Origin: Candidatus Latescibacterota bacterium
GTDB taxonomy: Bacteria; Latescibacterota; UBA2968; UBA8231
Direction: 5' to 3'
Length of the DNA: 64,000 bases
NCBI GenBank assembly: GCA_965221775.1
Contig: CBDCSU010000006.1
Span: 384,001-448,000, forward strand
The notes below the pieces were generated by a model. The model ran no database searches. It saw only the letters and a program-made list of their open reading frames with translations, and was not told the origin of the DNA. The position numbers were made by a program, and so were the translations under genes. Shown in pieces: positions 611-17,400 of this stretch. How positions within the stretch are numbered: position 1 is the first letter of the stretch; each line of letters opens with the position of its first letter.

Positions 611-626
611 GCCGCGGCCGGTCCGC

Positions 627-1766
627 CTAGCCGGCGGCCACCGCCTCGCTGCGGCGGGCGGCGCGGATGCACTCGCCGAGCAGCAGGATGCCCTCGCGGA
701 CGCTGTCCGCCGGCGCCTGTCCGAAGGCGAGACGGATGTTCGGCACGTCCTCGCCGCGCACGTGGAAGCCGCGGCCCCGGGCGAAGCGGACGCCGCGCTC
801 GTCGGCCAGCTCCTGCAGGCGGTCGAGGTCGATGTCGTCGGGCAGCTTCACCCAGATGAACAGCCCGCCCACGGGACGCGACCACGTGCAGATGTCGCCG
901 ACGCTCTCCTGCAGGCCGGCGAAGACGTCGTCCCGCTTGCGCTTGAGGGCGGCGTTGGTGCGCTCGCAGTGCTCCCAGAGACGACCGCGGAAGAACTCGG
1001 CCAGCACCGACGCGGCGAGCAGGCTGTTGCCGCCGTCGTAGCGCCGGTCGAGGACGCGCTGCAGCATCGGCGGCTGCGCCAGGATGTAGCCCATGCGCAC
1101 GCCGGGGCCCAGGATCTTGGAGAGGGAGCAGATGTAGATGTGGTCGGCCTCGGGGTCGAGGGCGTAGAGGGCGGGCGGCTTCGGCCCCTCGAAGTGGACG
1201 TCGCCGTAGCAGTTGTCCTCCACCAGGGGCACCCCGTGGCGGCGGGCCACCTCGATCAGCTCCAGGCGGCGGGCCCTCGGCATGACCGCCCCGGTGGGGT
1301 TCTGGTAGGTGGGCAGGGTGTAGACGAAGCACGCCGGCGTGCCGGCCCGCTCCAGCTCGTGCAGCCTGTCGTCGAGGGCGTCGGCGCGCAGGCCCTCCTC
1401 GTCGAGGGCGACGCCCTCCAGGCGCAGGCCGAGGCGGCGGTAGGCGCCGATCGTGCCCGAGTAGGTCAACTCCTCGCAGACGACCACGTTGTCGCCGCCG
1501 CCGGTGAGGGCCTCGGCCACCAGGGTCACCGCCTGCATGGAGCCGTTCATGAGGGAGATGTGGTCGGGCGATACCTCGATCCCCTCGCGGTCGGACTCGC
1601 GGGCCGCCATGACCTCGCGCAGACCGGGGTGGCCCAGATCGCCGGGGTACAGGGTGAAGCCCTCGCCCACGCCGGAGATCCCCCGGGCGGCGGCCTCGGC
1701 CAGCTCCGCCACGGGGAAGGTCTCGGGGTTCGTGCAGCCGCCGCCGAAGTCGTAAACGCCACTCAT
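627..1766 (-). CDS. PLP-dependent aminotransferase, class I/II (MocR/LysN-like)
   Basis: YTLPTYQNPTG, LVEDNCYG, SLSKILGPGVRMG (PLP lysine), PVGGLFIW. Confidence 0.9.
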   Translation of the reverse strand: MSGVYDFGGGCTNPETFPVAELAEAAARGISGVGEGFTLYPGDLGHPGLREVMAARESDREGIEVSPDHISLMNGSMQAVTLVAEALTGGGDNVVVCEELTYSGTIGAYRRLGLRLEGVALDEEGLRADALDDRLHELERAGTPACFVYTLPTYQNPTGAVMPRARRLELIEVARRHGVPLVEDNCYGDVHFEGPKPPALYALDPEADHIYICSLSKILGPGVRMGYILAQPPMLQRVLDRRYDGGNSLLAASVLAEFFRGRLWEHCERTNAALKRKRDDVFAGLQESVGDICTWSRPVGGLFIWVKLPDDIDLDRLQELADERGVRFARGRGFHVRGEDVPNIRLAFGQAPADSVREGILLLGECIRAARRSEAVAAG

Positions 1767-1782
1767 CTGGAGATCTCCTGTC

Positions 1783-2796
1783 TCAGGTCAGCTCGAGCAA
1801 CTCGAGCCGTGGATTGTCGGTGCGGCCGGGGCGCCGGCCGCGCTTGGCCACGGGGAGGCCGTCCACCTCCTTCACGTCGGCGGTGAAGTCGACGGCCGGG
1901 GCGCCGCTGATGGCGCTGCCGACGCCGTACCCGTCCACCGGGGCGCCGGCCTCCCGGAAGGCGCGGATGCGCTCCGGCGTGATGCCGCCGGAGACGAGGA
2001 TCCTCACGCCGCCGTGACCGCCGGCGTCGAGCCGCGACCGCACGCGGGCCACCAGCTCGGGCGTGACCCCGCCCAACTCGGAGGGCGTGTCGAGACGCAC
2101 CGCCCACAGCCGCTCCCCCATCGCCTCGGCGACCCTGACGCTCTCCTCGGCCTCGTCGAGGAAGGTGTCCACCAGGACGGTGCGCCCCACCGCCGGATCG
2201 ATGTGCCGGTCGAAGGCGAAGGCCGCCTCAAGGGTGTCGCCGAAGAGCAGCACCAGGGCGTGGGGCAGGGTGCCCGTCGCCTCCAGGCCGGACAGGGCGG
2301 CGCCGGCCGGGGTGGCGCAGCCGCTGCAGCCGCCGACGACGGCGGCGTACTCCAGGCGCGGGCTGACGTCGGGATGGACGTGGCGGGCCCCGAAGTGGAC
2401 CACGGCCACCCCCCCGGCCTCGGCGACGCAGGCCGCCGCCGCCGTGGCCCATCCCGTCTCGCTGGCCAGGGCGCCGAGGAGGGCCGTCTCGTAGAGACCG
2501 AAGGCGCGGTACGGACCGGCGACGCGCAGCACCACCTCTCCCGGCTCGAACCAACAACCCTCCGGCAGTCGCTCCACGGAAGCCGCCGCGGCCCCGGCCA
2601 GGGCGCTGCGCAGCAACTGCTCCACCTCGCGCATGCCGCACAGCAGCGCCCGCCGGCGGGCGAAGACCTCGACCACCGCCGCCGGGTCCCGGCCCTCGGC
2701 CTCGAGGACCTGGCGCGAGCGCAGGAAGTAGACGTCGGCGTTCTCTCCCGTCAGAGTCGCCGGGGACGGCTCGAACCCCGGGGGAGCGGCCGGCAT
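1783..2796 (-). CDS. pncB: Nicotinate phosphoribosyltransferase (short type)
   Basis: DVYFLR, HFGARH, GTLPHAL, LVDTF, VRLDTP, VSGGI, YGVGS, KRGR; start moved to ATG 2796 just after the pncA stop. Confidence 0.88.
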   Translation of the reverse strand: MPAAPPGFEPSPATLTGENADVYFLRSRQVLEAEGRDPAAVVEVFARRRALLCGMREVEQLLRSALAGAAAASVERLPEGCWFEPGEVVLRVAGPYRAFGLYETALLGALASETGWATAAAACVAEAGGVAVVHFGARHVHPDVSPRLEYAAVVGGCSGCATPAGAALSGLEATGTLPHALVLLFGDTLEAAFAFDRHIDPAVGRTVLVDTFLDEAEESVRVAEAMGERLWAVRLDTPSELGGVTPELVARVRSRLDAGGHGGVRILVSGGITPERIRAFREAGAPVDGYGVGSAISGAPAVDFTADVKEVDGLPVAKRGRRPGRTDNPRLELLELT

Positions 2797-2798
2797 GG

Positions 2799-3326
2799 TC
2801 AGCGGTTGGTGACCCGGGCGCCGAGGATCTTCTCCATGTGATCCAGGGCCCACTCGTGCTGCCGCGGGTCGAAGCTGGCCACGCAGTCGGCGGGCACCTC
2901 GACCTCGTAGTCGCGGTTGCGCAGCCCGGCCACCGTGTGCAGCACGCAGATGTCGGTGCAGTCCCCCATGACCACCACCCGCTCGGGGCCCAGCTGTTCG
3001 AGCTGCTCGGCCAGGTCGGTCTCGAAGAACGCGGAGTAGCGGCGCTTGACCACGCGCCTCGCTTCGGAGGCCAGGTCGGCGAGCTCGTCGATGATCTCTT
3101 CCTCGCCCGAGCCGGCCACGCAGTGGGGCGGGAACATCTTGAACTCGGCGTCGTCGGGCTCGTGGGTGTCCTGGGTGAAGAACAGGGCGGCGCCGGCGGC
3201 CTTCTCGCGCTCGACGCGGGAGCGCACCGGCGAGATGATCTGCCGCGCTCCCTCACCGCAGAACAGGGTGCCTCCGGGCTCCATGAAGCCCTTCTGCATG
3301 TCGACGATGATCACCGCGTTGGCCAT
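2799..3326 (-). CDS. pncA: Nicotinamidase / isochorismatase-family cysteine hydrolase
   Basis: IIVDMQKGF, DTH, FPPHC, KRRYSAF, GDCTDICV; adjacent to pncB; AGGAGG RBS upstream. Confidence 0.85.
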   Translation of the reverse strand: MANAVIIVDMQKGFMEPGGTLFCGEGARQIISPVRSRVEREKAAGAALFFTQDTHEPDDAEFKMFPPHCVAGSGEEEIIDELADLASEARRVVKRRYSAFFETDLAEQLEQLGPERVVVMGDCTDICVLHTVAGLRNRDYEVEVPADCVASFDPRQHEWALDHMEKILGARVTNR

Positions 3327-3472
3327 GGGTGGTTCCTCCTGCGCCGCTAAGTTACGGCGGCCCTGCCCGGAGGGAAACGCAGTCGCGGGGCCGGTCCTCC
3401 CGCCCGGCGTCTTGACCGGTCGACCCGAAGGGCGCCGATTACGGCGGACACGACCGCGCTCGCAGCGAGGGG

Positions 3473-4951
3473 ATGGCGATGAGCACCGAGTTGTATCCCG
3501 GCAAGCACCTCTTCGTCGACGACTTCCGCATCCAGGAGATGCGCGCCGCCCGCCGCGTGTTGCACCAGCCGGTGAAGCACGCGGACAACCCGGTCCTGGG
3601 GACGGAGCGCCCCTGGGAGGAAACGGCGGTCCACGCCGGTCACTTCCTCCACGACGGGGACCGCGGCTGTTTCCGCCTGTGGTACACCTCCCAAGCCGGC
3701 ACCGTCATCGGCACGCGCGTGCTGGTCCGCGACAATCCTCCCAAGGAGGTCCGGGAGTCCCACATCTGCTACGCCGAGTCCGCCGACGGCGTCCACTGGG
3801 ACCGCCCGGACCTGGGGATCACCGCCCAACAGAGGTATCCCGGCAACAACATCGTCATCCCCTCCATGCGCCCGCCCGGCCGCGCCGAGTTGTCGCACTT
3901 GGTGGACGACCCCGCCGACCCCGACCCGGAGCAGCGCTTCCGCATGATCTACCTCGACCAGGCCGAGGACGGAGCCCCCGGCGGCGGCCTGGCGCCGGAT
4001 CAGAAGCTCCGCCTCCACGCCCACTCGGCCGACGGCATCCACTGGACCCGCACGCCGCGGCAGCAGGGAGGTCCCTCCCGTCTCTTCGGCGTCCTCGCCT
4101 ACCTCGACGAGGAGCCGCGGGGAGAGCTGCGGCCCGAGGCCCGCTACATCCTCTACGGCCAGCGCGGCTCCCCCTGGAAGACGCGCCAGATCGGGCGGCG
4201 GGACAGCGACGACTTCGTCCACTGGAGCGGCAACCGCCCCGTCCTGGAGAGCCGCCCCGGCGACACCCCCGGCCTGGAGTTCTACTACCTGCAGGGAGCG
4301 GTGCGGAACCAGACCTACGCCGGCCTTCACCTCGGCATGCTCGGCGCCTACCACGCCGACCTGCGGCGCAAGTACGACCCGGCGCGCAACGACGGCGTCA
4401 CCGACTGCCAGCTGGCCTGGAGCCGCGACTCGGTCCGCTGGGAGCGCTGGCCCGAGCCCTTCATCCCGCGCGGCGAGCCGGGCGCCTTCGACTGGGGCGG
4501 CGTCTACTGCGAGTACCCCGCCATCGCGGAGGACCGTCTCTACTTCCTGTACACCGGCGGCAGCACCTGGCACGGACAGCGGGGCACGTCCACCCTCGGC
4601 CTGGCCACGCTGCGGCTGGACGGCTTCGTCTCCGTGCAGAGCGAGGGTTTCACGGAAGGGGTGGTGGTCACGCGCCCCCATCACTGGCGGGCCCTCGAGC
4701 TGCGGGTCAACGTGCAGTCGCTGACCGGCGGCCTCAAGGCGCAGCTCGAGGACGAGACGGGCCGCGCCTTCGAGGGCTTCTCCACCGGGGACGTGGAGCC
4801 CGTCCGCGCCGACGCCGTGGACGCAGCAGTGAGCTGGAAGGGAAAGGCCCGCGACCTGCGCGAGCTGAAGGGCCGCATGGTGGCCCTGCGGTTCACCCTG
4901 GGACCGGAGGACCGGCTCTATTCCTACACGCTGGTGCCGGCCTGTACATGA
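3473..4951 (+). CDS. Hypothetical protein; probable five-bladed beta-propeller (GH32/43-clan-like) plus C-terminal beta-sandwich
   Basis: HLFVDD start, repeated S-x-DG-x-x-W boxes (ESADGVHWDRPDLG, HSADGIHW, WSRDSVRW), LRLDGFVS. Confidence 0.75.
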   Translation: MAMSTELYPGKHLFVDDFRIQEMRAARRVLHQPVKHADNPVLGTERPWEETAVHAGHFLHDGDRGCFRLWYTSQAGTVIGTRVLVRDNPPKEVRESHICYAESADGVHWDRPDLGITAQQRYPGNNIVIPSMRPPGRAELSHLVDDPADPDPEQRFRMIYLDQAEDGAPGGGLAPDQKLRLHAHSADGIHWTRTPRQQGGPSRLFGVLAYLDEEPRGELRPEARYILYGQRGSPWKTRQIGRRDSDDFVHWSGNRPVLESRPGDTPGLEFYYLQGAVRNQTYAGLHLGMLGAYHADLRRKYDPARNDGVTDCQLAWSRDSVRWERWPEPFIPRGEPGAFDWGGVYCEYPAIAEDRLYFLYTGGSTWHGQRGTSTLGLATLRLDGFVSVQSEGFTEGVVVTRPHHWRALELRVNVQSLTGGLKAQLEDETGRAFEGFSTGDVEPVRADAVDAAVSWKGKARDLRELKGRMVALRFTLGPEDRLYSYTLVPACT

Positions 4952-4954
4952 AGA

Positions 4955-4980
4955 AGGGCCCGGGAGTTGTCCCGGGCCCT
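4955..4980. terminator. Hairpin terminator between convergent genes
   Basis: AGGGCCCGGGA-GTTG-TCCCGGGCCCT, perfect 11-bp stem; short U-rich run (TCTT) follows on the minus strand. Confidence 0.65.
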
Positions 4981-5093
4981 CCGAGCGACCGGCCCCGCCT
5001 CGATTGACGGCGTCGCGCCGCTATGCGGCCGGCCGATGGCCCCCAAGGAAAGAGGAAGAATCTTCCTCTGTCAAGGGACATGCAGGCCGCCGT

Positions 5094-5315
5094 TCAATCT
5101 TCCCGCCTGCTCTCGAAGTTGACCTCGTATCTCTCTGCGTCGATCTGATCGTGCGGCGGCTCGAGTCCGACCTCGAACAGGGTGGCGCGTCCATTGCCGA
5201 GAATGCCGTACCGCGTGGTGCTGGCCGAATCCAGGGCCCGGCCCTCCGCATCGAAGACGATGATCGTCATCTTGACGCCTTCATCGCTGTCGAAGCCGTC
5301 CCCGGAATTGCGCAC
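5094..5315 (-). CDS. Small hypothetical protein or C-terminal gene remnant (FxLYD/Ig-like beta strands)
   Basis: AGGAGG then GTG 5315: VRNSGDGFDSDEGVKMTIIVFDAEGRALDSASTT...FEVGLEPPHDQIDAERYEVNFESRRED. Confidence 0.4.
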   Translation of the reverse strand: MRNSGDGFDSDEGVKMTIIVFDAEGRALDSASTTRYGILGNGRATLFEVGLEPPHDQIDAERYEVNFESRRED

Positions 5316-5326
5316 CAGCACTCCTC

Positions 5327-6196
5327 CTAAAGGAACCGGGTGATGCCGAAGCCGGTGCGCCAGTTGTCCGGCGCGGCGTCGTAAGGCGCTCCCACGAGAA
5401 ACTGCGACGGACTGAGGCGCGTGTTGTTGGTGGCGATGAGGTAGAAGGTGTGCCCGCCCGTATCGAGGGAGAGACCCCAGGCCAGCGAGTGGTGGGAGCG
5501 CCCGCTCTCGCCCGGAGACAGGATGCCCTGGTAGCCCGCCAGGGCGGGGCTGTATTCCACCAGGACTCCCCAGGCGTGGTTGAAGAAGTACTGGACATAG
5601 GTGCCCAGGGTGACGGTGTACTGGGGATCGACGCTGAAGATGGCGCTGTTGTAGACGCAGGAAGGCACCAGGCCCAGGCCCAGCCTGTCGTCCACCATCG
5701 TGTTGAGGACGAGCTGGCCGTAGTACTGGAAGTTGTCGGCCGCGAGGGCGCCCCGGTCGACGATGGCCGGGATGTCCGTGTTCCAGGCGGCGCCCGCGTT
5801 CAGGGCGAGGACGGCGGGGAAGCGATCGTGGCGGAACTGCAGCCACCGGTAGCGAAGCTGCAGGTCGTAGTTGTCCAGCACGTTGCTCCGCCCCAGGGTC
5901 AGCATCATGCGGCCGCTGATCCCGTAGCTGACGGACATGCGGATGTTGGCCGGCCCGTCGAAGCCGAAGTTGGCCTTGTAGCCCCTGTCGATGGGCGGCA
6001 GGAAGCGATGGGAGATCTCGTAGTGGAAGGTGCCCCGGTAGAGGGTTTCGGTGGTGGGATGGTTGGGCGTGACGAGGGCGCGGAACAACTCGACACCCGC
6101 CCCGGGAGAGGCGCTCGCCTGCCACGAGGGCTGGGCGCCGGCCAGGGCCGGAAGGAGCCCGAAGACGGCCGCAAGGCGGAGAATACGCAGTCTCAT
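5327..6196 (-). CDS. DUF5777-family outer-membrane beta-barrel protein
   Basis: Signal peptide; FHYEISHRF, NFGFDGPANIR, DTGGHTFYL..TN, GFGITRFL C-terminus; ATG 6196 overlaps the yceI stop. Confidence 0.78.
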   Translation of the reverse strand: MRLRILRLAAVFGLLPALAGAQPSWQASASPGAGVELFRALVTPNHPTTETLYRGTFHYEISHRFLPPIDRGYKANFGFDGPANIRMSVSYGISGRMMLTLGRSNVLDNYDLQLRYRWLQFRHDRFPAVLALNAGAAWNTDIPAIVDRGALAADNFQYYGQLVLNTMVDDRLGLGLVPSCVYNSAIFSVDPQYTVTLGTYVQYFFNHAWGVLVEYSPALAGYQGILSPGESGRSHHSLAWGLSLDTGGHTFYLIATNNTRLSPSQFLVGAPYDAAPDNWRTGFGITRFL

Positions 6197-6774
6197 TCGT
6201 TCACCTCCGGTTCGGCAAGGGAGACCGAGACCTCCAGGTCGATCTTCTGGCTCACCTTGACGAAGGCGGCCAGGGAGGGAGCCTCGATGCCGTAGTCGGC
6301 CAGCTCTATCGAGAAGGCGGCCTCGACCTTGGAGCGCTCCCCTTCCACCACCACGAGGCCGGGCACGCCGATGGCGCGATCGACCCCGTGCAGGGACAGG
6401 GTGCCCCGGGTCTCGACACGAAGGGCGGTCACCGACGAATCGACGGCAGCCAGCCCGGTGATCTCCCCCTTGTACACCGCCTTGGGCCACTTGTCCGTGT
6501 CGAGGACCTCGCGCATGTCGCGGTCCCTCTTGCCTATGCCGCTGTCGAAGCTGGCCAGGTTCACCTCGAAGTGGAGCTGGCTGTTCTCCACCGAGAGGGA
6601 ATCCCCTTCCCAGTAGATGAAGCCGTCTATCTGGTCGGTCTCCCCGGTGAAGGTGAAGGCGGCCACGCTCGAGGTGTACTCGACCTGGTTCCCCCCGGCC
6701 TTCCTGTCCACGTGCCACTCGCCCCCCTCGACCGCGGCAGGAAGGCAGATCAGCAAGACAAGGAACCCGCGCAT
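6193..6774 (-). CDS. YceI-family lipid/polyisoprenoid-binding protein
   Basis: Signal peptide; FDSGIGKRDRDMREVLDTDKWP, GTLSLHGV, LADYGIEAP. Confidence 0.85.
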   Translation of the reverse strand: MRGFLVLLICLPAAVEGGEWHVDRKAGGNQVEYTSSVAAFTFTGETDQIDGFIYWEGDSLSVENSQLHFEVNLASFDSGIGKRDRDMREVLDTDKWPKAVYKGEITGLAAVDSSVTALRVETRGTLSLHGVDRAIGVPGLVVVEGERSKVEAAFSIELADYGIEAPSLAAFVKVSQKIDLEVSVSLAEPEVNE

Positions 6775-6784
6775 CGGTCGGCCC

Positions 6785-7189
6785 TCAGTCCCTCGGGGCT
6801 CCCCTCTCGATCCAGGCGCGCACGATCTCGAGGGAAGCCTCATCCAGGTACGGCCCGCCGAGGGGCATGCGCCCGCCGGAGATCGGGGCCTCAGGCAACA
6901 GCTTGAGATACAGGTAGCTGCTGTCCGGAAGGCCCGGGTACACCAGGGGAAGACCTTGGGTGCTCTCGATGTCGACGATGTTCCCGTACGCCTTGCCGGC
7001 GGACAGGTCGGGCCAGGCGCTGCCGCCATGGCAGCCGCTGGAGGCGCACGAGACATCGAAGATCCGGGTCTGTACCCGCTCGAAGGTCGCCGGCCCTTCG
7101 GGGGCGGAATCGAAGACCATGTCCGTGGTGGTGGTCAGGTCGCAGGCCGCGGCGATCACCGTCAAGGCGAGCAGGAACAGCTTTCTCAT
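6785..7189 (-). CDS. Lipoprotein, mono-heme c-type cytochrome (planctomycete cytochrome C-like)
   Basis: Lipobox IAAAC; CASSGCH heme motif; PGLPDSSYLYLKL; RMPLGG (candidate Met ligand); IVRAWIERGA. Confidence 0.75.
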   Translation of the reverse strand: MRKLFLLALTVIAAACDLTTTTDMVFDSAPEGPATFERVQTRIFDVSCASSGCHGGSAWPDLSAGKAYGNIVDIESTQGLPLVYPGLPDSSYLYLKLLPEAPISGGRMPLGGPYLDEASLEIVRAWIERGAPRD

Positions 7190-7246
7190 TGTCTCTGAGC
7201 CCAGGTGAGGGTTGGGCATTTGCCAGCGGACCCCGGGCTCTCAGAC

Positions 7247-7966
7247 CTATCGGAAATCACTTCGGATCTGCTCCAGGCGGTCAATCCCTGGATCCAAGCC
7301 AAATCTGCGGAAGAGCTCACGCGCCCATGCCAATCCAATCGACCGTGTCTCCGCGACTAGCTCATCCCGCGGGAATTCCTGACCCCTAGGGAATCCATCG
7401 ATATGTGCCGTTGGGGGTTCCTCCCAAGTCGGAATCGGATGGCCGTGATCCAGCCATAGTACCCTTCCACAGAGTCTCGTCGGAGTGATCTCAACCCCGA
7501 TACGACTTGAGCCCGCTTCGCTTAGAGAGAGGGCAGAAGCAAACTCCATGAACTCTGCATATCGACAGACGATGTCCCCAGCACCCAGTAGTGGTTGTCG
7601 GGAAGGATCGGCTGGCGGCTGCTGGGTCCAACTTGAGGTGCTTCTCGTCCAGTCAAGAAGGAACGCTCCAAAGTAGATGAATTGGCCACTCTGACAAAAA
7701 CGCCAGAATTCCTTGATATCCGGGAAGTCGCTGCCGCCCTCCAGATTGACGGCCTGTTCAATGTAGTCGGTACCAAACTTGGGCCCTCTGCTTCGGTCCA
7801 CATGCGGAAAGTCCCAGCCGCCGCGTAGCTGGACCGAAGAGCGCTGGAGTATCCCTTCAAGATCTGTGATACTCGGAACGCGCTCTTTGTGGGGGAATGG
7901 GCGAAGGACGAGCTTCCAATGCCCCTTGGACTTGATCTGTCGGAGCGTCTCTATGGTCTCACTCAT
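7247..7966 (-). CDS. Hypothetical protein, partner of the Schlafen/AlbA_2 protein
   Basis: ATG 7966 overlaps upstream stop (ATGAGTGA); motifs SSVQLRGGWDFPH and EFWRFCQSGQF; lower GC than flanks. Confidence 0.75.
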   Translation of the reverse strand: MSETIETLRQIKSKGHWKLVLRPFPHKERVPSITDLEGILQRSSVQLRGGWDFPHVDRSRGPKFGTDYIEQAVNLEGGSDFPDIKEFWRFCQSGQFIYFGAFLLDWTRSTSSWTQQPPADPSRQPLLGAGDIVCRYAEFMEFASALSLSEAGSSRIGVEITPTRLCGRVLWLDHGHPIPTWEEPPTAHIDGFPRGQEFPRDELVAETRSIGLAWARELFRRFGLDPGIDRLEQIRSDFR

Positions 7967-8546
7967 CGAGATCCCTGATTTCTTGGTCAAAGAGATCGTC
8001 ATCATTGCGAACAGGGACTTCGGCCGCCTGGAGACGTCTGAATCGACGGAGAACCTTTTCTGTAGCCAATTCCAGAAGCTCGCGCATCTCAGCAGAGTTG
8101 GGAATCTCGGAACTCTCGATCCGTCCTCGTCTTCTGACGTAGCATGCCCCGTCCCGTAGGATTCCCTGGTATTCCTTCTTGCACAAGACTGGTACTTCCG
8201 GGAACTCGTCAACCCTGATGACGACGAGGCTCTTCCCGTCGACTGACATCAGTTCGATATGTACGGTGACGAAGGGATCAGCGTAGGCATTGACGCCACC
8301 AGAAACACCTTCCTGACCCCAAGTGCTCAGATCCTCATCATTGACACCGACTAGCTTGAGTGCCCCTCCGTCCTCCTCTACCCCTATCACAACATGCCCC
8401 CCATTTCGACGGTTCGAGAGAGCCAGAACAGCCCGGACAACCTTTGCGAACCCTTTTTTGTTGGTCCGAGGCCCAGACGCCTTGCACTCCACTCCCGGTG
8501 TCTCGTGACCCAGAGACAGCAGCTGTTTCAACTCTTGCTCGGTCAT
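7959..8546 (-). CDS. Schlafen/AlbA_2-domain protein (stand-alone)
   Basis: GHETPGVECKAS, VLALSNRRNGGHVVIGVEED, LVVIRVDEF, GACYVRR. Confidence 0.85.
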   Translation of the reverse strand: MTEQELKQLLSLGHETPGVECKASGPRTNKKGFAKVVRAVLALSNRRNGGHVVIGVEEDGGALKLVGVNDEDLSTWGQEGVSGGVNAYADPFVTVHIELMSVDGKSLVVIRVDEFPEVPVLCKKEYQGILRDGACYVRRRGRIESSEIPNSAEMRELLELATEKVLRRFRRLQAAEVPVRNDDDLFDQEIRDLDE

Positions 8547-8547
8547 C

Positions 8548-9927
8548 TCAATGACCCACAGCCGCCGCGGCCTCCTTCACCACCTCCGACAGACTCGGAT
8601 GCGCATGCACCGTGCGCGCCAGGTCCTCGGCGCTGGCACCGAACTCCAACGCCACGACAGCCTCTGCGATCAGGTGCGAGGCCTGCGCCCCGAGGATGTG
8701 CACGCCGAGAAGGCGGTCACCATCGGCTTCGGCCACCACCTTCGCGAAGCCGTCGGGGGAGTTCATGGTGTGGGCCCGGGCGTTGGCGCGGAAGGAGTGG
8801 CGGCCGGTGCGCACCTCGTGGCCGGCTTCGCGGGCCTGCTCCTCGGTGAGGCCCACGGAGGCGGCCTCGGGGTGGGTGTAGACGACGTTGGGGATGGCCC
8901 CGTAGTTGACGCTCGATCCCATGCCGGCCATGCGCTCCACGGCGGCGACGCCCTCGGCCTCGGCCTTGTGCGCAAGCATCGGGCCGGGGGTGACGTCGCC
9001 GATGGCGTAGATCCCGTCGACGCTGGTGCGGTAGTCCTCGTCGACGGTGACGAATCCGGAGCGGTCGCGCTCGACGCCGGCCTCCTCCAGGCCGAGGCCA
9101 TCCGTGTGCGGCCGGCGGCCCACGGCCACGAGCACGCAGTCGCACTCGACGTCCGAGGCCTTCTGGTTCTTCCTGGACTCCAGGTGAAGGCGCACCCCGT
9201 CGGCGGAGAGTTCGGCCCCCGTGGCCCGCGTCGACAGGTGGCACTTCAGGCCCTGGCGCTTGAGGGTGCGCTCCAGCTGCCTGGAGACCTCGCCGTCGGC
9301 GCCGGGCAGCACGGCGTCCAGGTACTCCACCACCTCCACCTCGGCGCCGAGGCGGCTCCAGACCGAGCCCATCTCTAGGCCGATGGCGCCGCCGCCGATG
9401 ACCGCCATTCGCTCAGGGACGGCGTCGAGGGACAGGGCCTCCTCGGAGCCGAGGATGCGCTGCCCGTCGAAGGGCAGGTCGGGCAGCTCCGCCGGCGAGG
9501 AGCCGGTGGCCAGCAGCACCCGGGCGGCCTCGATCTCCCCGGCGCCCTCCACCGAGACCCGTCCGGCGGCGGCGAGACGGGCCTCGCCCTCGACGTACTC
9601 GACGCCCTTGCTCTTGAAGAGGGTGGCCACGCCCTTGGTCATGCGGCCGACGATGCCCTGCTTGTGCTTCATCATCGCCGCCAGGTCGAGGCGCAGATCG
9701 CCGGCGAGGATGCCGTGGTCGTCGAGGCCTTCCTTCAGCTCCGCCCAGCGGTGGCTGGCTTCCAGCAGGGCCTTGCTCGGGATGCAGCCGGCCTGCAGGC
9801 AGGTCCCGCCGAGCCAGCCGCGGTCGACGCAGACGACCTTCATGCCCAGGTCGGCGGCTCTCGCCGCCGCCGCGTAGCCGCCGGGGCCGGCGCCGATGAC
9901 GACGAGGTCGCAGGAGCGGCCGGCCAA
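8548..9927 (-). CDS. lpdA: Dihydrolipoyl dehydrogenase (E3)
   Basis: GAGPGGY, GGTCLQAGCIPSK redox disulfide, GGGAIGLE, HAHPSLSE. Confidence 0.96.
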   Translation of the reverse strand: MAGRSCDLVVIGAGPGGYAAAARAADLGMKVVCVDRGWLGGTCLQAGCIPSKALLEASHRWAELKEGLDDHGILAGDLRLDLAAMMKHKQGIVGRMTKGVATLFKSKGVEYVEGEARLAAAGRVSVEGAGEIEAARVLLATGSSPAELPDLPFDGQRILGSEEALSLDAVPERMAVIGGGAIGLEMGSVWSRLGAEVEVVEYLDAVLPGADGEVSRQLERTLKRQGLKCHLSTRATGAELSADGVRLHLESRKNQKASDVECDCVLVAVGRRPHTDGLGLEEAGVERDRSGFVTVDEDYRTSVDGIYAIGDVTPGPMLAHKAEAEGVAAVERMAGMGSSVNYGAIPNVVYTHPEAASVGLTEEQAREAGHEVRTGRHSFRANARAHTMNSPDGFAKVVAEADGDRLLGVHILGAQASHLIAEAVVALEFGASAEDLARTVHAHPSLSEVVKEAAAAVGH

Positions 9928-9929
9928 GG

Positions 9930-11360
9930 TCAGATCTCCAGGGCCAGGCGGGCCGGGTCTTCGAGAAGCTCCTTGACGCGCACCAGGAAGCGCACCGACT
10001 GCTCGCCGTCGACGAGGCGGTGGTCGTAGGTCAGGGCCAGGTACATCATCGGACGGACGGCGACCTGGCCGTCGACGGCGACGGGCCGGTCCTTGATGGC
10101 GTGCATGCCGAGGATGCCGGTCTGGGGCGGGGTCAGGATCGGCGTCGACATCATCGAGCCGAAGAGGCCGCCGTTGGTGATGGTGAAGGTCCCCCCCGAC
10201 AGGTCGTCGAGAGCGAGCCCTCCCTCCCGGGCGGCGGCGGCGAGGCGCTTGATCTCGGACTCGATGCCGGCCATGGAGAGGCTCTCGGCGCCGCGGACCA
10301 CGGGCACCAGGAGGCCGCGCTCGGTGGAGACGGCGATGCCGAGGTTGACGAACTCCTGGTAGACGATGTCGTCGCCGTCGATGCGGGCGTTGAGGGCGGG
10401 GATCTCGCGCAGGGCGACGACGGAGGCCCGCGAGAAGAAGGACATCAGTCCCAGTGAGACGCCGTGCTTTGCCTGGAAGCGCTCCTTGTGGCGCGCCCGC
10501 AGGGCCATCACCTCGGTCAGGTCGACCTCGTTGAAGGTGGTGAGCATGGCCGCCACCCGCTGCGCCTCGGTGAGCCTCTCGGCGATGCGCCTGCGGATGC
10601 GGGACATGGGCTCGCGGCGCTCGCCCGGGGCCTCGGCGGCCGGGGCGGGACTCGCTGGTGCGGGCGCGGGCGCCGGCGGCGGCGAGGGTTCTGCCTGCGC
10701 CGGGCGCGCGGGGGCGGCGTCGGGCGCGGCAGGGGCTGCGGGCGCCGGGGCCGCCGCGAGAGGCGCGGCTGCGGCATCGGGCGCCGTGGAGGGCTCAGGC
10801 GCCGAGTCGCTGGGTTCCTCGACCCTGGCGGGCTCCCCGTCCCCGTCGGCCCCCCGGCTCTTCAGGTAGTTCAGCACGTCCTGCTTGATCAGCCGTCCGC
10901 CGCGGCCGGTGCCCTCGATGCGCGACGGGTCGACGCCGCTCTCCTGCACCAGGCGGCGCACCGCCGGACTCAGGGCCGACCGCCCGGCGGCGGGCGCGGC
11001 CGGGGCCTCGGGCGCGGGATCAGCGGGCGCGGGTCGGGGCGGTTCCTGCGAGCGTGTCTCAGCCTCCGGGGCGGGCCCGACCTGCGCCTCGACGGACACC
11101 CCCGCTTCGGCGGCGGACGGCCTCTCCCCCGCCTCGATGCGGGCGATCACCTCTCCCACGGAGATCGCCGCGTCGACCTCCTTCAACGGATGCAACACCC
11201 CGGCCTCCAGCGCCGGCAGGTCGACGTTGGCCTTGTCCGTCTCGAGGATGCAGATCGGCTCGCCCTTCTCCACGTACTCGCCGCCGGCCTTGAGCCACTC
11301 CAGGAGCACGACCTCGCTGATCGATTCCCCCATCTCGGGCACGACGACCTCGAATGCCAT
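9930..11360 (-). CDS. sucB: 2-oxoglutarate dehydrogenase E2, dihydrolipoamide succinyltransferase
   Basis: Lipoyl ETDKA, E3-binding [26 protein letters not shown]. Confidence 0.95.
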
Positions 11361-11369
11361 CACCGATCC

Positions 11370-14264
11370 TCAACTGCCGGCGTCGGCGCCCGCGGCCCTG
11401 CGGGCGGAGGGGGCCGCGTCGATGCGCAGCTCCTTGCCCGCCGGGTCGAGGGCCTGCTCGACGATCTCGTGTTGCTCGGTCTGGTGCTGGCCGGCGTCGC
11501 CCACGGCCGGGCTGGCGGCCTCGTCGCGGCCGACGTAGCCCAGCTCCGCCGACTCCGGGAGCAGCTCGTCGAGGAGTGGCTGCACGAAGTACCAGGCGCC
11601 CATGTTGAGGGCCTCCTCCTGCACCCACAGGAACTTCTCGGCCTTGGGGTAGCGGCCGATGGCCTCGGCCACCTCGGCCTCCGGGAAGGGGTAGAGCTGC
11701 TCGAGGCGCACCAGGGCGACCTCGTCGAGCCCCTTCTCGTCGCGCTCGGCGAGCAGGTCGTAGTAGATCTTGCCCGTGCACAGGATGAGGCGGCGGACGG
11801 AGCCGGGCTCGGCGCGGCCGTCGTCGATGACGTTGCGGAAGCCGCCGGAAGCGAGCTCGTCGATATCGGAGACGCAGCTCTTGTGGCGCAGCAGGCTCTT
11901 GGGGGTCATGACCACCAGGGGCTTGCGGAAGTTGCGGTGCATCTGCCGGCGCAGGACGTGGAAGATCTGCCCCGGCGTGGTGGGATGGACGACCTGCATG
12001 TTGTTCTTGGCGCACAGCTGCAGGTAGCGCTCCAGGCGGGCGCTGGAGTGCTCGGGCCCCATGCCCTCGTAGCCGTGGGGCAACAGCAGCACGAGGCCGC
12101 ACATGCGGTGCCACTTGGCCTCGGCGCTGGAGATGTACTGGTCGATGACGAGCTGGGCGCCGTTGGCGAAGTCGCCGAACTGGGCCTCCCACATGACCAG
12201 CCGCCGCGGGTCGGCGGAGCTGACGCCGTACTCGAAGCCGAGGACGGCGAGCTCGGAGAGCATCGTGTTGAGGGCGACGAACTCCCCCTGGCGCGGGGAC
12301 AGGTGCGCCAGGGGCACGTGCCGGGCGCCGGTCCCGGTGTCGTGCCAGACGGCGTGGCGGTGGGCGAAGGTGCCGCGCTGGGAGTCCTGCCCGGCGAGGC
12401 GCACGGGCACACCTTCGAGGAGCAGGCTGCCCCAGGCGAGCATCTCGGCGGCGCCCCAGTCGACGGGGCGCTCGCCGGCGGCCATCTCGCGGCGGGCGGC
12501 GTTGATCCGCGCCACCGTGCGGTGCACCTGGAAACCTTCGGGCACCCGGGCCGCCCGTTCGCCGATGCGCTGGAGGGTGCGGCGGCTGACGCCGGTCTCG
12601 GCATGCCAGTCGGGACCGGCCCAGGTCATGCCCTGCCAGATGCCGCCGAAGGTGTTGGTCCGCGGCTTCACCTTGAGGCGGCGGGCCTTCTCCTGGCAGC
12701 GCTCCATCGCCTCCTGCACGTGGACCCGCATCTCCTCCATCTCGCCGGCGGTGATCACGCCGGCCTCGATCAGCTGCCTGGCGTAGAGGACCGTCGCCGT
12801 GGGGTGGGCGGCGATCTTCTGGTACATGCGCGGCGAGGTGAGGGTGGGGTCGTCGGCGACGTTGTGACCGTGGCGGCGGTAGCACTTGAGGTCGATGAGG
12901 ACGTCGCGCTTGTACTCCTGGCGGAAGCCGATGGCCAGGCGCGCGGCGTGGACCACCTGCTCCGGGTCGTCGGCGTTGACGTGGAAGACCGGCGCCTCGA
13001 TCTGGCGGGCGATGTCGGTGGCGTAGCGGGTGAAGCGGGTCTCGCGGGGGGTGGCGGTGTAGCCCAGCTGGTTGTCGATGATGACGTGGATGGTGCCGCC
13101 GTTCCAGTAGCCCTCGAGCTGGGCGAGGTTGAGGGTCTCGGCCACCGTGCCCTGACCGGTGAAGGCGGCCTCCCCGTGGATCTGCAAAGGCACGACGCGG
13201 CCGCGCTCCTCCTGGTCCTGCAGGTAGTCCTGCTTGGCCAGCACCATGCCCTCGATGACCGGGTTCACCAGCTCCAGGTGGCTGGGGTTCGGGCTCAGGG
13301 AGAGGTGCATCTTGCGGCCGTGGGAGGTGACGAAGTCGTACGAGTAGCCCTGGTGGTACTTGACGTCGCCCTCGTCCTCGGCCCCCTCGGCCCGGGAGGC
13401 GCCCTCGAACTCGGCGAGGATCACCTCGTAGGGCTTGTGCAGGAGGTGGGCGAGGACGTTGAGCCGCCCGCGGTGGGCCATGCCGATGACCATCTCCTCG
13501 ACGCCGAGGCCGCTGCCGGTCTCCACGAGGGCGTCGAGGAGGGGGAGCAGGGCGTCGCCGCCCTCGATGGAGAACCGTTTCTGGCCCACGTAGCGGGTGT
13601 GCAGAAAGAGCTCGAACTCCTCCGCCTCGATCAGCAGGAAGAGGATGCGGCGGCGCTCTTCGGGGCTGAAGTCGAGGCGGCCGAGGATCGGCTCGACGCG
13701 CTCCTCGAGCCAGGCTTCCTGCTCCTTGTCGGAGGTCGACATGGTGTCGATGCCGAGGCTGCCGCAGTAGGTCCGGCGCAGCAGGCGGATCAGGCCGCCG
13801 AGGGTGCCGTCGGTCTCGTGGCCGAAGGTGCTGGCGCCGGCGCCTTTCTCCAGGTCCTCCTCGGTGAGGCCGAACTCGGAGAGCTCCAGCAGCGGATGGG
13901 AGGCCGGGTCCTGGCCGAGGGGGTCGAGGCGGGCCATGTAGTGGCCCCACTGGCGGTAGGCGCGCACCAGGGCGATGACGTCCCGGTCGCCGCGGTCCAG
14001 GTGGCCGGCTGGCCCGGCGACGGCCGGCGGCGGCGGGACGGGCTCGGGCGGCGGCGCGGCGGGCTCGGCTGTCCGGGCGGCGGGAGCCGCCGCCGAGGTG
14101 GAGCCCTCCCCTTCCTCCTCTTCCTCGGCGCGCAGATAGCCGTAGTCGAAGCCGCGGAAGAAGGCGACCCACTCGGGATCGACCGACGCGGGATCGGCCT
14201 GGTAGCGCTGGTAGAGGGCCTCGACGTAGTCGGCGTTCGAGCTGTTCAGATCGATGGGAGACAT
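11370..14264 (-). CDS. sucA: 2-oxoglutarate dehydrogenase E1
   Basis: NADYVEALYQRY..DP.SVDPEW, GQKRFSIEG, GMAHRGRLN, GDVKYH, NPSHLE, WEAQFGDFANGAQ, GPEHSSAR, QEEALNMGAW; start ATG 14264. Confidence 0.95.
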   Translation of the reverse strand: MSPIDLNSSNADYVEALYQRYQADPASVDPEWVAFFRGFDYGYLRAEEEEEGEGSTSAAAPAARTAEPAAPPPEPVPPPPAVAGPAGHLDRGDRDVIALVRAYRQWGHYMARLDPLGQDPASHPLLELSEFGLTEEDLEKGAGASTFGHETDGTLGGLIRLLRRTYCGSLGIDTMSTSDKEQEAWLEERVEPILGRLDFSPEERRRILFLLIEAEEFELFLHTRYVGQKRFSIEGGDALLPLLDALVETGSGLGVEEMVIGMAHRGRLNVLAHLLHKPYEVILAEFEGASRAEGAEDEGDVKYHQGYSYDFVTSHGRKMHLSLSPNPSHLELVNPVIEGMVLAKQDYLQDQEERGRVVPLQIHGEAAFTGQGTVAETLNLAQLEGYWNGGTIHVIIDNQLGYTATPRETRFTRYATDIARQIEAPVFHVNADDPEQVVHAARLAIGFRQEYKRDVLIDLKCYRRHGHNVADDPTLTSPRMYQKIAAHPTATVLYARQLIEAGVITAGEMEEMRVHVQEAMERCQEKARRLKVKPRTNTFGGIWQGMTWAGPDWHAETGVSRRTLQRIGERAARVPEGFQVHRTVARINAARREMAAGERPVDWGAAEMLAWGSLLLEGVPVRLAGQDSQRGTFAHRHAVWHDTGTGARHVPLAHLSPRQGEFVALNTMLSELAVLGFEYGVSSADPRRLVMWEAQFGDFANGAQLVIDQYISSAEAKWHRMCGLVLLLPHGYEGMGPEHSSARLERYLQLCAKNNMQVVHPTTPGQIFHVLRRQMHRNFRKPLVVMTPKSLLRHKSCVSDIDELASGGFRNVIDDGRAEPGSVRRLILCTGKIYYDLLAERDEKGLDEVALVRLEQLYPFPEAEVAEAIGRYPKAEKFLWVQEEALNMGAWYFVQPLLDELLPESAELGYVGRDEAASPAVGDAGQHQTEQHEIVEQALDPAGKELRIDAAPSARRAAGADAGS

Positions 14265-14323
14265 CGCTGCCGGAGGGCGCCGCCCGGGAGTGCGCGGTGA
14301 GCGTAACTGCAAGAAAGCACTGG

Positions 14324-14352
14324 AAGATACTGGCGCGCGGATATGGGGTAAA
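14324..14352 (-). promoter_or_regulatory. Candidate sigma70 promoter for sucA-sucB-lpdA
   Basis: Minus strand TTTACC-17 nt-TATCTT upstream of sucA. Confidence 0.4.
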
Positions 14353-14369
14353 GAGACCCATCCGGCGCC

Positions 14370-14398
14370 TTGAGCCGGTCTTCCGGCCCCCGTAGCTT
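14370..14398 (+). promoter_or_regulatory. Candidate sigma70 promoter for purL
   Basis: TTGAGC-17 nt-TAGCTT, 42 nt before the purL ATG. Confidence 0.4.
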
Positions 14399-14440
14399 CT
14401 GGGCTCGCCTCCCCGCCCCGCCTTCCTCCCGGGAACACGG

Positions 14441-17400
14441 ATGCCGCTGCAGCTCTTCGACGGCCCGCCGGCGTTGTCCCCCTTCCGGCGGGCGGCCCTG
14501 CTCGAACGCTGTCGGGAGAGCGCCCCCGGCGTACGCGCCCTCGACGCCCGCTTCCTCTACATGGCCTGGTTCGACGAGCCGCCGGCGGCCGGGGCCATCC
14601 GCCGCCTGGGCGAGGTCCTCGGCGCCGAGGAACGGCGCGACTCCCTCGATCTCTCGACCGACCTGTCGACCTCCTCCCTCCTCGTGACCCCGCGGCCGGG
14701 GACGATCTCGCCCTGGTCGAGCAAGGCCACCGACATCGCCGCCAACTGCGGCGCTGCCGTGGACCGCATCGAGCGCGGCACCCGCTACACCTTCGCGGGC
14801 GTCGGCGTCCCGGACCTCGACCCCCTGCTCCCGCTGCTGCACGACCGCATGACGGAAGCGGTGATCGACGCCCCGGAGAGCCTCTTCGCGCGCCACGAGC
14901 CCCGTCCCCTGCAGTCCGTCCCCCTCGGCCGCGACGGACACGCCGCCCTGGTCGAGGCCGACACCCGCTGGGGGCTGGCCCTCTCCGCCGAGGAAATCGA
15001 CTACCTGGCCGACACCTACCTCCGCCTCGGCCGCGATCCCACCGACGTCGAGCTGGTGATGTTCGCCAACGTCAACTCCGAGCACTGCCGGCACAAGATC
15101 TTCAACGCCGCGTGGATCGTCGACGGCCAGCGCCAGGAGCGCTCCCTCTTCGACATGATCCGCCACACCCACGCCCGCCACCCCGAGCACACGGTGAAGG
15201 CCTACTCCGACAACTCCGGGGTCATCGAGGGCTTTCCCGCCGAGGTCTTCCGGCCCGACGGCGACGGCTTCCGCTACCGCTACCACGCCCGGGACACCCA
15301 CATCCTCTGCAAGGTGGAGACCCACAACCACCCCACGGCGATCTCCCCCTGGCCCGGGGCCTCCACCGGCGTCGGCGGCGAGATCCGCGACGAGGGCGCC
15401 ACCGGCGCCGGGGCGCGCTCCCAGGCGGGGCTGTGCGCGTTCTATGTCTCCCACCTGCGCATCCCCGGCTGGGAGCAGCCCTGGGAGGCCCCCGTGGCCG
15501 AGCCTCCCGCGCGGCTGGCCTCGCCCCTGCAGATCATGACCGACGGCCCCCTCGGCGGCGCCGCCTTCGGCAACGAGTTCGGCCGGCCCAACGTCCTCGG
15601 CCTGTTCCGCACCTTCGAGCAGGTCGTCGACGGCCGCCACCGCGGCTACCACAAGCCGATCATGGTCGCCGGCGGCAGCGGCCTCATCGACGCCGACCAG
15701 GTGGAGAAGGCCGCTCCCGAGGCCGGCGACGCGGTGGTGCAGATCGGCGGCCCGGCCCTGCTCATCGGCCTCGGCGGCAGCTACGCCTCCTCCATGGACA
15801 CGGGGAGCAACCTCGAGGAGCTGGACTTCGCCTCGGTGCAGCGCGACAACCCCGAGATGCAGCGCCGCTGCCAGGAGCTGATCGACCGCTGCGCCGCCCT
15901 CGGACCGGAGAACCCCATCCGCTCCATCCACGACGTCGGCGCCGGCGGCCTGTCCAACGCCTGCCCGGAGCTGGTGGAGGGCGCCGGGGCCGCCTTCGAC
16001 CTGCGCGCCATCCCCAACGACGAGCCGGGCATGAGCCCCATGGAGCTGTGGAGCAACGAGGCCCAGGAGCGCTACGTCCTCGTCGTCGGCGCCGCCCGCC
16101 TGGAGCGCTTCCGCGAGATCGCCGGCCGCGAGCGCTGCCCCATCGCCGTCATCGGGCGGGTCACCGGCGACGGCCGCCTCACCCTGGAGGACCCGCTCTT
16201 CGGCAACCGCCCCGTGGACGGCCTGCCCCTGGAGGCCCTCCTCGGCAAGCCCCCGCGCATGGTGCGCGACGTCAGCCGGCGGCCCGGGGGCGGCGGCGGC
16301 TTCGCCCTCGACGACATCGACCTGGCCGAGGCGGCGGAACGCGTGCTGCGCTTCCCGGCGGTGGCGGCCAAGAGCTTCCTCATCTCCATCGCCGACCGCA
16401 CCGTGGGCGGCTGCATCGCCCGCGACCAGATGGTCGGCCGCTGGCAGGTGCCGGTCTCGGACTGCGCCGCCACCCTCACCGGGTTCCGCGGCCACACGGG
16501 CGCCGTCATGGCCATGGGCGAGCGCACCCCGGTGGCCGTGGTGGACGGTCCGGCGGCGGCGCGGCTGGCCGTGGCCGAGGCGGTGACCAACCTCGCCGCC
16601 ACGCCGGTGGGCGCCATAGAGAAGGTGAAGCTGTCGGCCAACTGGATGTGCGCCTGCGGCGAGGAGGGGGAGGACGCCGCCCTCTTCGACACGGTGCGCG
16701 CCGTGGGCCTGGAGTTCGGCCCCGCCCTCGGCGTGTCGATCCCCGTGGGCAAGGACAGCCTCTCCATGCGCGCCGTGTGGAGCGACAGCGGCGGCGAGGA
16801 GCACACCGTGGCCGCGCCCCTGAGCCTGGTGGTCTCCGCCTTCGCGCCGGTCACCGACGTGCGCGGCATCGTCACCCCGGAGCTGAAGCCGCAGGCAGAG
16901 ACGCGGCTGCTCCTCGTCGACCTCGGGCGCGGCCGCGACCGCCTCGGCGGATCCTGCCTGGCTCAGACGTTCGGCCGCCTCGGCGAGGAGGTCCCCGACG
17001 TGGAGCCCGCCGACGTGCGCGGACTCTTCGCCGCCCTGCAGGCGCTGCTGGCCGAGGGCCTGCTGCTGGCCTGCCACGACCGCTCCGACGGCGGCCTCTT
17101 CGCCTGCGCCGCGGAGATGGCCTTCGCCGGGAGGCGGGGGGTGCGCCTGCGCCTGGCCGAGGGGGCGGAGCCGCTGGCGGCGCTGTTCAGCGAGGAGATC
17201 GGCGTCCTGCTCCAGGTTCGCGCCGCCCACGCGGACCGCGTGCGGGAGGAGTTCGCCGCCCATGGAGTCGGCGAGTGCGTGCGCGACATCGGATCCCCGG
17301 TCGAGGCCGACACCTTCGAGGTCTGCCTGGGCGCCGGTGAAACCCCTGTCTACCGCGAGGACCTGGGCGCCCTGGAGCAGGCCTGGGCCGAACTGAGCTA

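Follow-up and report, generated by a model that had tools for sequence, protein, structure and literature searches.

A two-gene Schlafen nuclease cassette behind lpdA in a Latescibacterota genome: a probable horizontally acquired phage-defence module

The antiviral role of bacterial Schlafen nucleases was demonstrated as late as 2026, and each of those characterized is a single chain with a sensor, according to the available part of PMC13552941. The motif Ex4(E/D)xK has been described as the catalytic signature of the prokaryotic Schlafens (pSlfn) (Perez Taboada et al., Nat Microbiol 2026, PMC13056530), and tRNA cleavage and phage defence have been demonstrated for proteins that carry it (PMC13056530; PMC13552941). 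In the survey of PMC13056530, 97.1% of the Schlafen domains were fused, 1,020 fusions were unannotated, and a TBP-like class of 89 proteins was named pSlfn8; what we say of these papers and of PMC13462974 applies to the parts of their text that were available. Here, we describe a pair of overlapping genes that directly follows lpdA in a 64,000-nt window of the genome of a Candidatus Latescibacterota bacterium (assembly GCA_965221775.1, contig CBDCSU010000006.1, positions 384,001 to 448,000). Gene A encodes a Schlafen nuclease of 195 aa and gene B a partner protein of 239 aa from an unnamed family, and the pair is probably a horizontally acquired, split Schlafen effector with its sensor or regulator, which would function in phage defence. 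The locus reveals a two-gene form of Schlafen and a large family of second domains (968 representative clusters) that has no Pfam model, and a predicted adaptor helix of about 13 residues offers a concrete coupling element between the two. If this reading is true, the partner would represent a new class of sensor or regulator in prokaryotic immunity, and the pair would be a simple system in which to follow the silencing and activation of a Schlafen enzyme. To our knowledge, how the human Schlafen enzymes are silenced and switched on is still an open question.

The closest described systems are pSlfn proteins such as RorSlfn5 (Schlafen with an Ig-like sensor) and EcoSlfn7 (DUF262 with Schlafen). 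The locus shares with them the Ex4(E/D)xK nuclease, the combination of an effector with a variable, presumably phage-sensing domain, and a patchy spread (PMC13056530). Unlike in these proteins, as far as the available text describes them, the effector and the presumed sensor of the window are encoded by two genes with an 8-nt overlap and are predicted to be connected through an adaptor helix, and the second domain has no Pfam model. A full-text search found no paper on the two-gene form, the partner family, its combination with TIR or HNH heads, or the adaptor helix; the supplementary tables of PMC13056530 may bear on this. The pSlfn8 class resembles our pair in that the Schlafen domain is followed by an alpha/beta TBP-like domain, and the weak top Foldseek matches of gene B are also to TBP. 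However, the two examples listed for this class are, as judged from their coordinates, about 355 and 387 aa long, as against 423-459 aa for the fusions found in this study (PMC13056530). The fused relatives of the pair may fall within the pSlfn8 or the unannotated-fusion bins of that survey, going by its available part.

Both genes lie on the minus strand and make up a foreign cassette of 1373 nt (7175-8547), which is delimited by the points at which similarity to same-genus genomes breaks. Its left border is the stop codon of lpdA (TGA, 8550-8548, minus strand; synteny ends at 8548), and its right border lies in the start region of a lipoprotein-like gene. The ATG of gene A (8546-8544) is located 1 nt past the lpdA stop, and the ATG of gene B (7966-7964) precedes the end of the gene A stop codon (7961-7959), giving the overlap of 8 nt. 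These coordinates agree with the initial annotation, and the protein lengths and the motifs HETPGVECK, IGVEED, LRGGWDFPH and EFWRFCQSGQF on which it relied are all present. It had also described the pair as more AT-rich than its flanks, and this holds: the guanine-plus-cytosine (GC) content of the cassette is 55.9%, compared with 72.0% in the flanks (1-7174 and 8548-20000). Window by window, the GC fraction is 0.55-0.58 over 7201-8600 and 0.63-0.82 in the adjoining windows.

Gene A (7959-8546, minus strand), the presumed effector, is a prokaryotic Schlafen by domain, motif and fold. Residues 16-143 match PF04326 (SLFN_AlbA_2) with an E value of 2.7e-12 and a score of 47.7 bits, against a gathering cut-off of 25.3. 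The protein carries Ex4(E/D)xK as E15, E20 and K22 in the motif E15-T-P-G-V-E20-C-K22 (8481-8504, minus strand). In an alignment of 70 members of the gene A family (A3), E15 and K22 are each found in 70/70 sequences, and position 20 is acidic in 69/70 (59 E and 10 D, with a single K). It had been proposed that the acidic residues of both HETPGVECK and IGVEED belong to the Schlafen RNase site. The former is indeed the conserved catalytic motif, but the acids of the latter are only partly conserved (E or D at position 57 in 43/70 sequences, and 55/70 at position 58). In the AlphaFold model of gene A (pLDDT 93.8), two helices come after the nuclease core, a long one (151-175) and a short one at the terminus (182-194). 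Foldseek aligned this model with 20 chains at E <= 1e-3, including 3lmm, 2kyy, SLFN11, SLFN13, SLFN12, SLFN5, SLFN14 and the tRNase domain of SAMD9, and the probability was 1.00 for SLFN11, SLFN13, SLFN12, SLFN5 and the bacterial 3lmm and 2kyy. By analogy with these enzymes, gene A would cleave tRNA or other RNA.

Gene B (7247-7966, minus strand), the presumed sensor or regulator, had no match in Pfam (E <= 0.1), NCBIfam, PHROGs or PADLOC, and a profile search of the PDB sequences gave 0 matches at E <= 10. Its relatives nevertheless form 968 representative clusters at E <= 1e-3 and 483 at 1e-10, and two alignments of them, of 15 (A1) and 130 sequences (A2), reveal two near-invariant motifs, R-G-W-D-F-P-H and W-R-x-Y-Q-S-G-Q-F. 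In the first motif, G50-W-D-F-P-H55 of gene B (7802-7819, minus strand), all six residues are invariant in A1; in A2, this still holds for P54, and conservation is at least 90% for G50 and W51. The second corresponds to a strand pair, W88-R-F-C-Q-S-G-Q-F96 (7679-7705, minus strand), in which W88, R89, S93, G94 and F96 are conserved at 90% or more in A2. The model of gene B is confident (pLDDT 94.3, pTM 0.92), and Foldseek found no match for it in PDB and BFVD at E <= 1e-3. The top resemblance, to TBP, is weak (E 0.05-0.3, probability at most 0.30), and VIA placed TBP at Z 3.4-3.6. The best VIA matches, to AdoMetDC-like domains and the N-terminal domain of spermine synthase, have a Z of 6.1-6.4, a level common among unrelated folds, so we assign neither a fold nor a fold-based function to gene B. 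In the ESM Atlas, gene B met unnamed clusters only, and the nearest named one is a cluster of 368-aa proteins (score 0.85), in which 16% of the members carry PF04326.

Members of the partner family occur in a scattered fashion in Chloroflexota, Acidobacteriota, Planctomycetota, Actinomycetota, Patescibacteria, Elusimicrobia, Gemmatimonadota, Nitrospirota, Firmicutes and archaea. On viral contigs, 64 pattern matches yielded 0 confirmed relatives. A survey of 401 archaeal genomes of one phylum, that of locus L043, gave two strong partner matches (G061 and G321); a weaker archaeal match (L094) proved to be a false one inside a glycoside hydrolase and was rejected. The other weaker match, in the archaeal genome G429, is a divergent Schlafen fusion, a 474-aa protein (L093, 422-1846) in which AlbA_2 is followed by a C-terminal part that resembles the partner only distantly (profile E 1.1e-6). 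The family probably extends beyond what our searches show.

The two genes form an obligate unit. We fetched the loci of the best 80 of 150 relatives from species-representative genomes and of the best 80 of at least 482 relatives from metagenomes, and in 77/80 and 72/80 of them, respectively, the gene immediately before the partner, in the same orientation, is a gene A homolog. Six of the eight metagenome exceptions have less than 360 nt of upstream sequence. Among the 77 genome loci, the two genes overlap by 4 nt in 57 and by 1 nt in 8. The co-occurrence of partner homologs with AlbA_2, which had been left to be established, is thus seen across many phyla. The initial annotation had also suggested that a partner-type domain occurs fused to AlbA_2 elsewhere, and such fusions do exist: all 16 long representatives (423-459 aa) among the best 150 carry PF04326 before the partner domain, and in two of the fetched loci (L059 and L062) the nuclease and partner parts are encoded by one reading frame.

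A single-gene candidate system of PADLOC, PDC-S50 (387 positions), was compared with these proteins. Weak alignments to its N-terminal Schlafen part were obtained for gene A (positions 7-145, E 9.5e-4) and for the fusion P0255 (positions 8-149, E 3.5e-8); the fusion P0039 had no match, and the partner domain matches no part of the remainder. A search for PDC-S50 was empty in three genomes and, at E <= 1e-20, also in 401 genomes from the phylum to which L039 belongs; in this second set the control genomes were silent too.

Schlafen is not the only effector with which the partner is combined. In the archaeal locus L043, a TIR gene abuts the partner gene (TIR_2, E 3.9e-9), and in another archaeal genome (L091) the two are fused in a protein of 401 aa (TIR_2, E 1.8e-11). 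In the 358-aa protein P0053, the partner domain follows a Cap5-like HNH domain that matches the SAVED-HNH profiles (E 9.7e-27) of the cyclic-oligonucleotide-based antiphage signalling system (CBASS). A fourth protein, P0229 (L081), has an N-terminal domain of 170 aa before the partner domain; this N-terminal domain had no match in Pfam, PADLOC or the PDB sequences, and looks TIR-like by eye. Because of the combinations with TIR, HNH and the P0229 head, the partner domain is a module that accepts different effector heads, the pattern of immune sensor and regulatory domains. The search for partner homologs adjacent or fused to other effectors, for which the initial annotation had called, is answered by the TIR (split in L043, fused in L091) and HNH (P0053) cases. 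In L081 (1288-3901), the start of the 401-aa P0229 is overlapped by a 471-aa protein with AlbA_2, HATPase_c_4 and Fic_C domains, a second kind of Schlafen neighbour.

The order of an N-terminal effector and a C-terminal regulatory domain is the same as in CBASS Cap5 (HNH-SAVED), in TIR-SAVED and in the type III CRISPR protein Cash (Schlafen-Csx15; PMC13462974). It could be supposed from this likeness that the partner plays the role of SAVED, CARF or Csx15 and that a nucleotide signal made elsewhere in the genome turns the nuclease on, which we regard as unlikely. Schlafen, TIR and Cap5-like HNH are the effector set of CBASS and type III CRISPR sensors, going by the available part of PMC13462974 for Cash; the invariant GWDFPH lies outside the predicted interface with the nuclease and could line a pocket; and gene B weakly resembles folds that bind nucleotides or SAM (AdoMetDC, Z 6.0-6.4; SAM lyase, Z 4.7-4.9). 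However, these structural matches are within the noise range of the tool, and judged by its sequence the C-terminal domain does not belong to SAVED or Csx15; a likeness to SAVED or CARF was looked for in vain, an absence that is weak evidence. We also scanned the neighbours of the pair in 38 loci, taking two open reading frames (ORFs) on each side (142 of the 284 selected ORFs). Unlike for Cap5, TIR-SAVED and Cash, as described in PMC13462974, no signal-producing enzyme is nearby: among 141 neighbouring ORFs of these loci, and beside the pair in the window, there is no cyclase, CD-NTase or Cas10-type gene, and no ThsB-type TIR partner.

The way in which the two proteins could be coupled was modelled. 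The complex of A and B reached an ipSAE of 0.75, compared with 0.29 for the best control; in the benchmark, the mark was reached by 116/157 solved complexes and by 2/215 mismatched pairs, a calibration which is rough here, our own alignments having been used. Agreement among the three runs is at least 85% of the contacts, with a partner pLDDT of at least 87. On the side of the nuclease, the predicted interface is the terminal helix (181-193; residues 181-183, 185-186, 189-190 and 193), encoded at 7968-8006 on the minus strand. On the side of the partner, it is the N-terminal-half beta-sheet (residues 20-26, 67-68 and 87-99, with an alternation of 87, 89, 91, 93, 95, 97 and 99), to which the conserved strand pair W88-F96 belongs; the residues of GWDFPH are absent from it. 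Proteins A and B are thus predicted to bind each other via the helix.

Support for the helix that is independent of the model comes from its sequence. The consensus is about D-x3-F-x2-[QE]-L-[GE]-D-L, and in the family alignment F186 is found in 55/70 sequences, Q or E at position 189 in 68/70 and L193 in 50/70. The separate TIR protein of L043 ends in the same motif, and in the TIR, HNH and Schlafen fusions this motif is the linker directly before the partner domain. Because the motif is conserved in the nuclease family, ends the L043 TIR and links the fusions, the helix has the properties of a portable adaptor, and the point of gene fission is immediately behind it. We tentatively go one step further, to a proposal that we hold with some doubt: the partner may be a widespread, unnamed immune sensor domain of both bacteria and archaea and a universal socket for any effector that ends in the D-x3-F-x2-[QE]-L-x-D-L helix, whether fused or separate, with effector exchange and gene fission occurring at one joint, and GWDFPH may be the place where the cue of infection is read, be it a small molecule or a protein of the phage.

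In the mechanism we propose, the module would be a split version of the single-chain prokaryotic Schlafen defence protein. Genes A and B would be made together through translational coupling, and the C-terminal helix of the nuclease would plug into the N-terminal-half beta-sheet of the partner, so that the parts stay attached. In the resting state, the partner would silence the nuclease, although the logic may be that of activation or of mere inhibition. An infection cue, most likely a phage protein, would release the nuclease or switch it on, and the active enzyme would cut host and phage RNA and stop phage growth in the manner of abortive infection. The initial annotation had proposed a split effector with a sensor or inhibitor as part of an unnamed conflict system, and this proposal gains from the conservation of the unit, the fusions, the TIR and HNH heads, the foreign origin of the cassette and the presence of Septu at the same site in a relative.

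Much of the same anatomy would be expected of an addiction module of the toxin–antitoxin (TA) type, in which a nuclease toxin is neutralized by the binding of a protein antitoxin and the pair is a selfish element that has no dedicated phage sensing; we rate this explanation as rather improbable. The genes are tightly coupled and overlapping, two small proteins that would be co-translated are predicted to bind each other, as in a type II TA pair, and in most loci the pair is a lone insert among housekeeping genes. Three loci have TA-type neighbours (L016, L022 and L032), and in L133 the upstream sequence contains a gene for a CopG antitoxin. Moreover, the nuclease gene is damaged beside an intact partner in several loci: in-frame stops are present in L035 (at the position of the first catalytic Glu) and in L047, the nuclease of L067 appears as two overlapping matches in different frames, likely a frameshift, and in L011/L133 a near-complete deletion has left a remnant of the gene. 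A rearranged copy was found in L138. The broken copies fit a costly nuclease, and so a costly toxin, but their counts are biased, since the survey was made via the partner, and errors in metagenome-assembled genomes (MAGs) may contribute. In the opposite direction, the partner of L034 is cut short next to an insertion sequence, whereas its nuclease gene is intact. Fusions into one chain are frequent (16 of the 150 best representatives), and a permanent fusion of toxin and antitoxin would be unusual. For an antitoxin, the partner is large and unusually well conserved, and it is joined to TIR and CBASS-type HNH domains, as sensor domains are. It also has no detectable DNA-binding domain of the sort through which antitoxins autoregulate (RHH, HTH or AbrB), with no Pfam or NCBIfam match and no obvious helix-turn-helix in the model, which is a weak exclusion. 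The TA-like explanation shares most of the anatomy and is compatible with abortive infection, but the fusions and the TIR and HNH heads argue for the logic of a sensor.

In PMC13056530, the defence-neighbour rate of pSlfn genes is given as 69.6%. In our scan, defence neighbours (restriction–modification, Hma or Uma2) were found in 7/38 loci (L004, L008, L014, L015, L021, L023 and L040). Two further loci have ambiguous neighbours (L003 and L031), and four have integrases or transposases (L012, L020, L033 and L034). The association of the pair with defence genes is real but moderate. PADLOC matches to mad2 (tRNA and other methyltransferases, L010 and L014) and to PDC-M51B (a thymidylate kinase, L024) concern generic enzymes and were discounted. 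In four loci from Dehalococcoidia (L008, L015, L021 and L023), a gene that fuses an N6_N4 DNA methylase to Mrr_cat/NA-iREase1 lies directly downstream of the pair (about 6720-8480); its recurrence may reflect a third neighbour or simply an orthologous site. In an Acidobacteria MAG (L014, 6929-12616), the pair is adjoined by an Hma system with HmaB and with an HmaC that carries an N-terminal HEPN_Swt1.

Several observations weigh against a defence module with a sensor. About 22 of the 38 loci have metabolic or unassigned neighbours alone, and the neighbours of the pair in the window are housekeeping genes. The fold of gene B gives no functional clue, its best VIA matches (Z 6.1-6.4) lying within the noise range of that tool, and PADLOC gives no system call for the pair. 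The non-Schlafen heads are few (two TIR, one HNH and one unassigned), and the binding of A to B is predicted by a model confidence score. RNA cleavage, toxicity and phage protection would be expected by analogy with relatives that share only the Schlafen domain with gene A.

The cassette is foreign to the lineage and was probably acquired horizontally. Among 60 relatives searched (9 from the genus, a further 27 from the family and 24 from the class), none yielded the partner, and different cargo lies at the site in same-genus genomes; the initial annotation had named vertical conservation of the pair at this site as an argument against its proposal. The lpdA gene is 92% identical to that of three same-genus genomes (G007, G002 and G006), the nucleotide similarity to which stops at 8548, 8547 and 8555, respectively, and resumes at 7174. 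An empty site between lpdA and the cytochrome gene had been anticipated in related genomes; none was seen among these three, each of which has other cargo. In G007 and G002 (L088, 228-2870; L089), the site holds about 2.6 kb encoding small PEGA, YidD-like and TPR proteins, which may be its older content. In G006 (L090, 1880-4136, G006:C1), it holds a 2.3-kb Septu cassette of about 54% GC with PtuA (430 aa, E 1.7e-145) and PtuB (269 aa, E 1.1e-41). Septu occupies the same intergenic site and is likewise GC-poor, but its proteins are unrelated to A and B, and the link is positional only. Because of this Septu system in a sister genome, we consider the slot after lpdA to be a variable spot, a small defence hotspot inside a housekeeping operon. 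Outside the window, the pair has a lower GC content than the adjoining sequence in 48 of the 52 loci with full flanks (median, 7.7 points), which, together with the scattered phyla, fits repeated horizontal transfer.

The pair could also have a role unrelated to defence, in which an AlbA_2 protein that binds nucleic acids or processes RNA has, together with an accessory subunit, been co-opted to the operon for 2-oxoglutarate dehydrogenase. The start of gene A is 1 nt past the lpdA stop and no terminator-like site lies between them, the flanks of the pair in other genomes are mostly metabolic genes, and 30.4% of the prokaryotic Schlafen genes surveyed have no defence neighbour, according to the available part of PMC13056530. 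However, the pair was not found in the 60 relatives that keep the suc operon region, other cargo, including Septu, lies at the site in relatives, the genes that flank the pair vary by locus, the composition of the cassette is foreign, and the partner combines with TIR and HNH effectors. We therefore hold such a role to be very unlikely and retain the split Schlafen effector with its sensor or regulator as the preferred explanation.

The arrangement at the cassette is not an assembly chimera, because contigs from public runs, including one from a second sample, cover the stretch. Single contigs of runs X1 and X2, which may be the source sample itself, span 6800-9000 with no difference. In run X4, from another sample, a contig of 1459 nt covers 7113-8571 with two differences; it extends 61 nt beyond the right junction but just 24 nt beyond the left one. 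The depth of this contig is about 3, compared with summed depths of 12-190 for the flanks. Another X4 contig joins 7142 to 8564 and skips 1421 nt, with a side of 30 letters and undefined content between. These data give a weak hint that the cassette is polymorphic in nature and present in part of the population, the joint in X4 being perhaps the cassette-free form.

Upstream of the cassette, as had been noted from the sequence, is the housekeeping operon sucA-sucB-lpdA on the minus strand. The sucA gene (11370-14438) was identified by phmmer (E 5e-259 to E. coli 2-oxoglutarate dehydrogenase E1) and sucB (9930-11363) by Pfam; lpdA (8548-9927), which closes the operon, encodes dihydrolipoyl dehydrogenase (Pyr_redox_2, E 8.9e-73; Pyr_redox_dim, E 2.2e-39). 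The initial annotation had supposed that the pair probably lacks a promoter of its own and is read from this operon, which may be so. A scan for sigma-70 promoters gave 0 sites against 0.3 expected, too few to inform, and the single terminator-like site in the scan, which is on the opposite strand, is equally uninformative. No repeats were found at the cassette borders, and no tRNA genes in window positions 1-20000. Downstream of the cassette, the lipoprotein-like gene (6785-7189, minus strand), an ORF with a CxxxxCH motif and no Pfam match at E <= 0.01, is the cytochrome of the initial annotation and is not part of the module. The region 4800-7200, which encodes this lipoprotein, YceI and a DUF5777 barrel, has a GC fraction of 0.63-0.68, compared with 0.70-0.76 in 1-4800 and past lpdA; despite this lower GC, its genes are kept at 88-91% nucleotide identity in the same-genus genomes.

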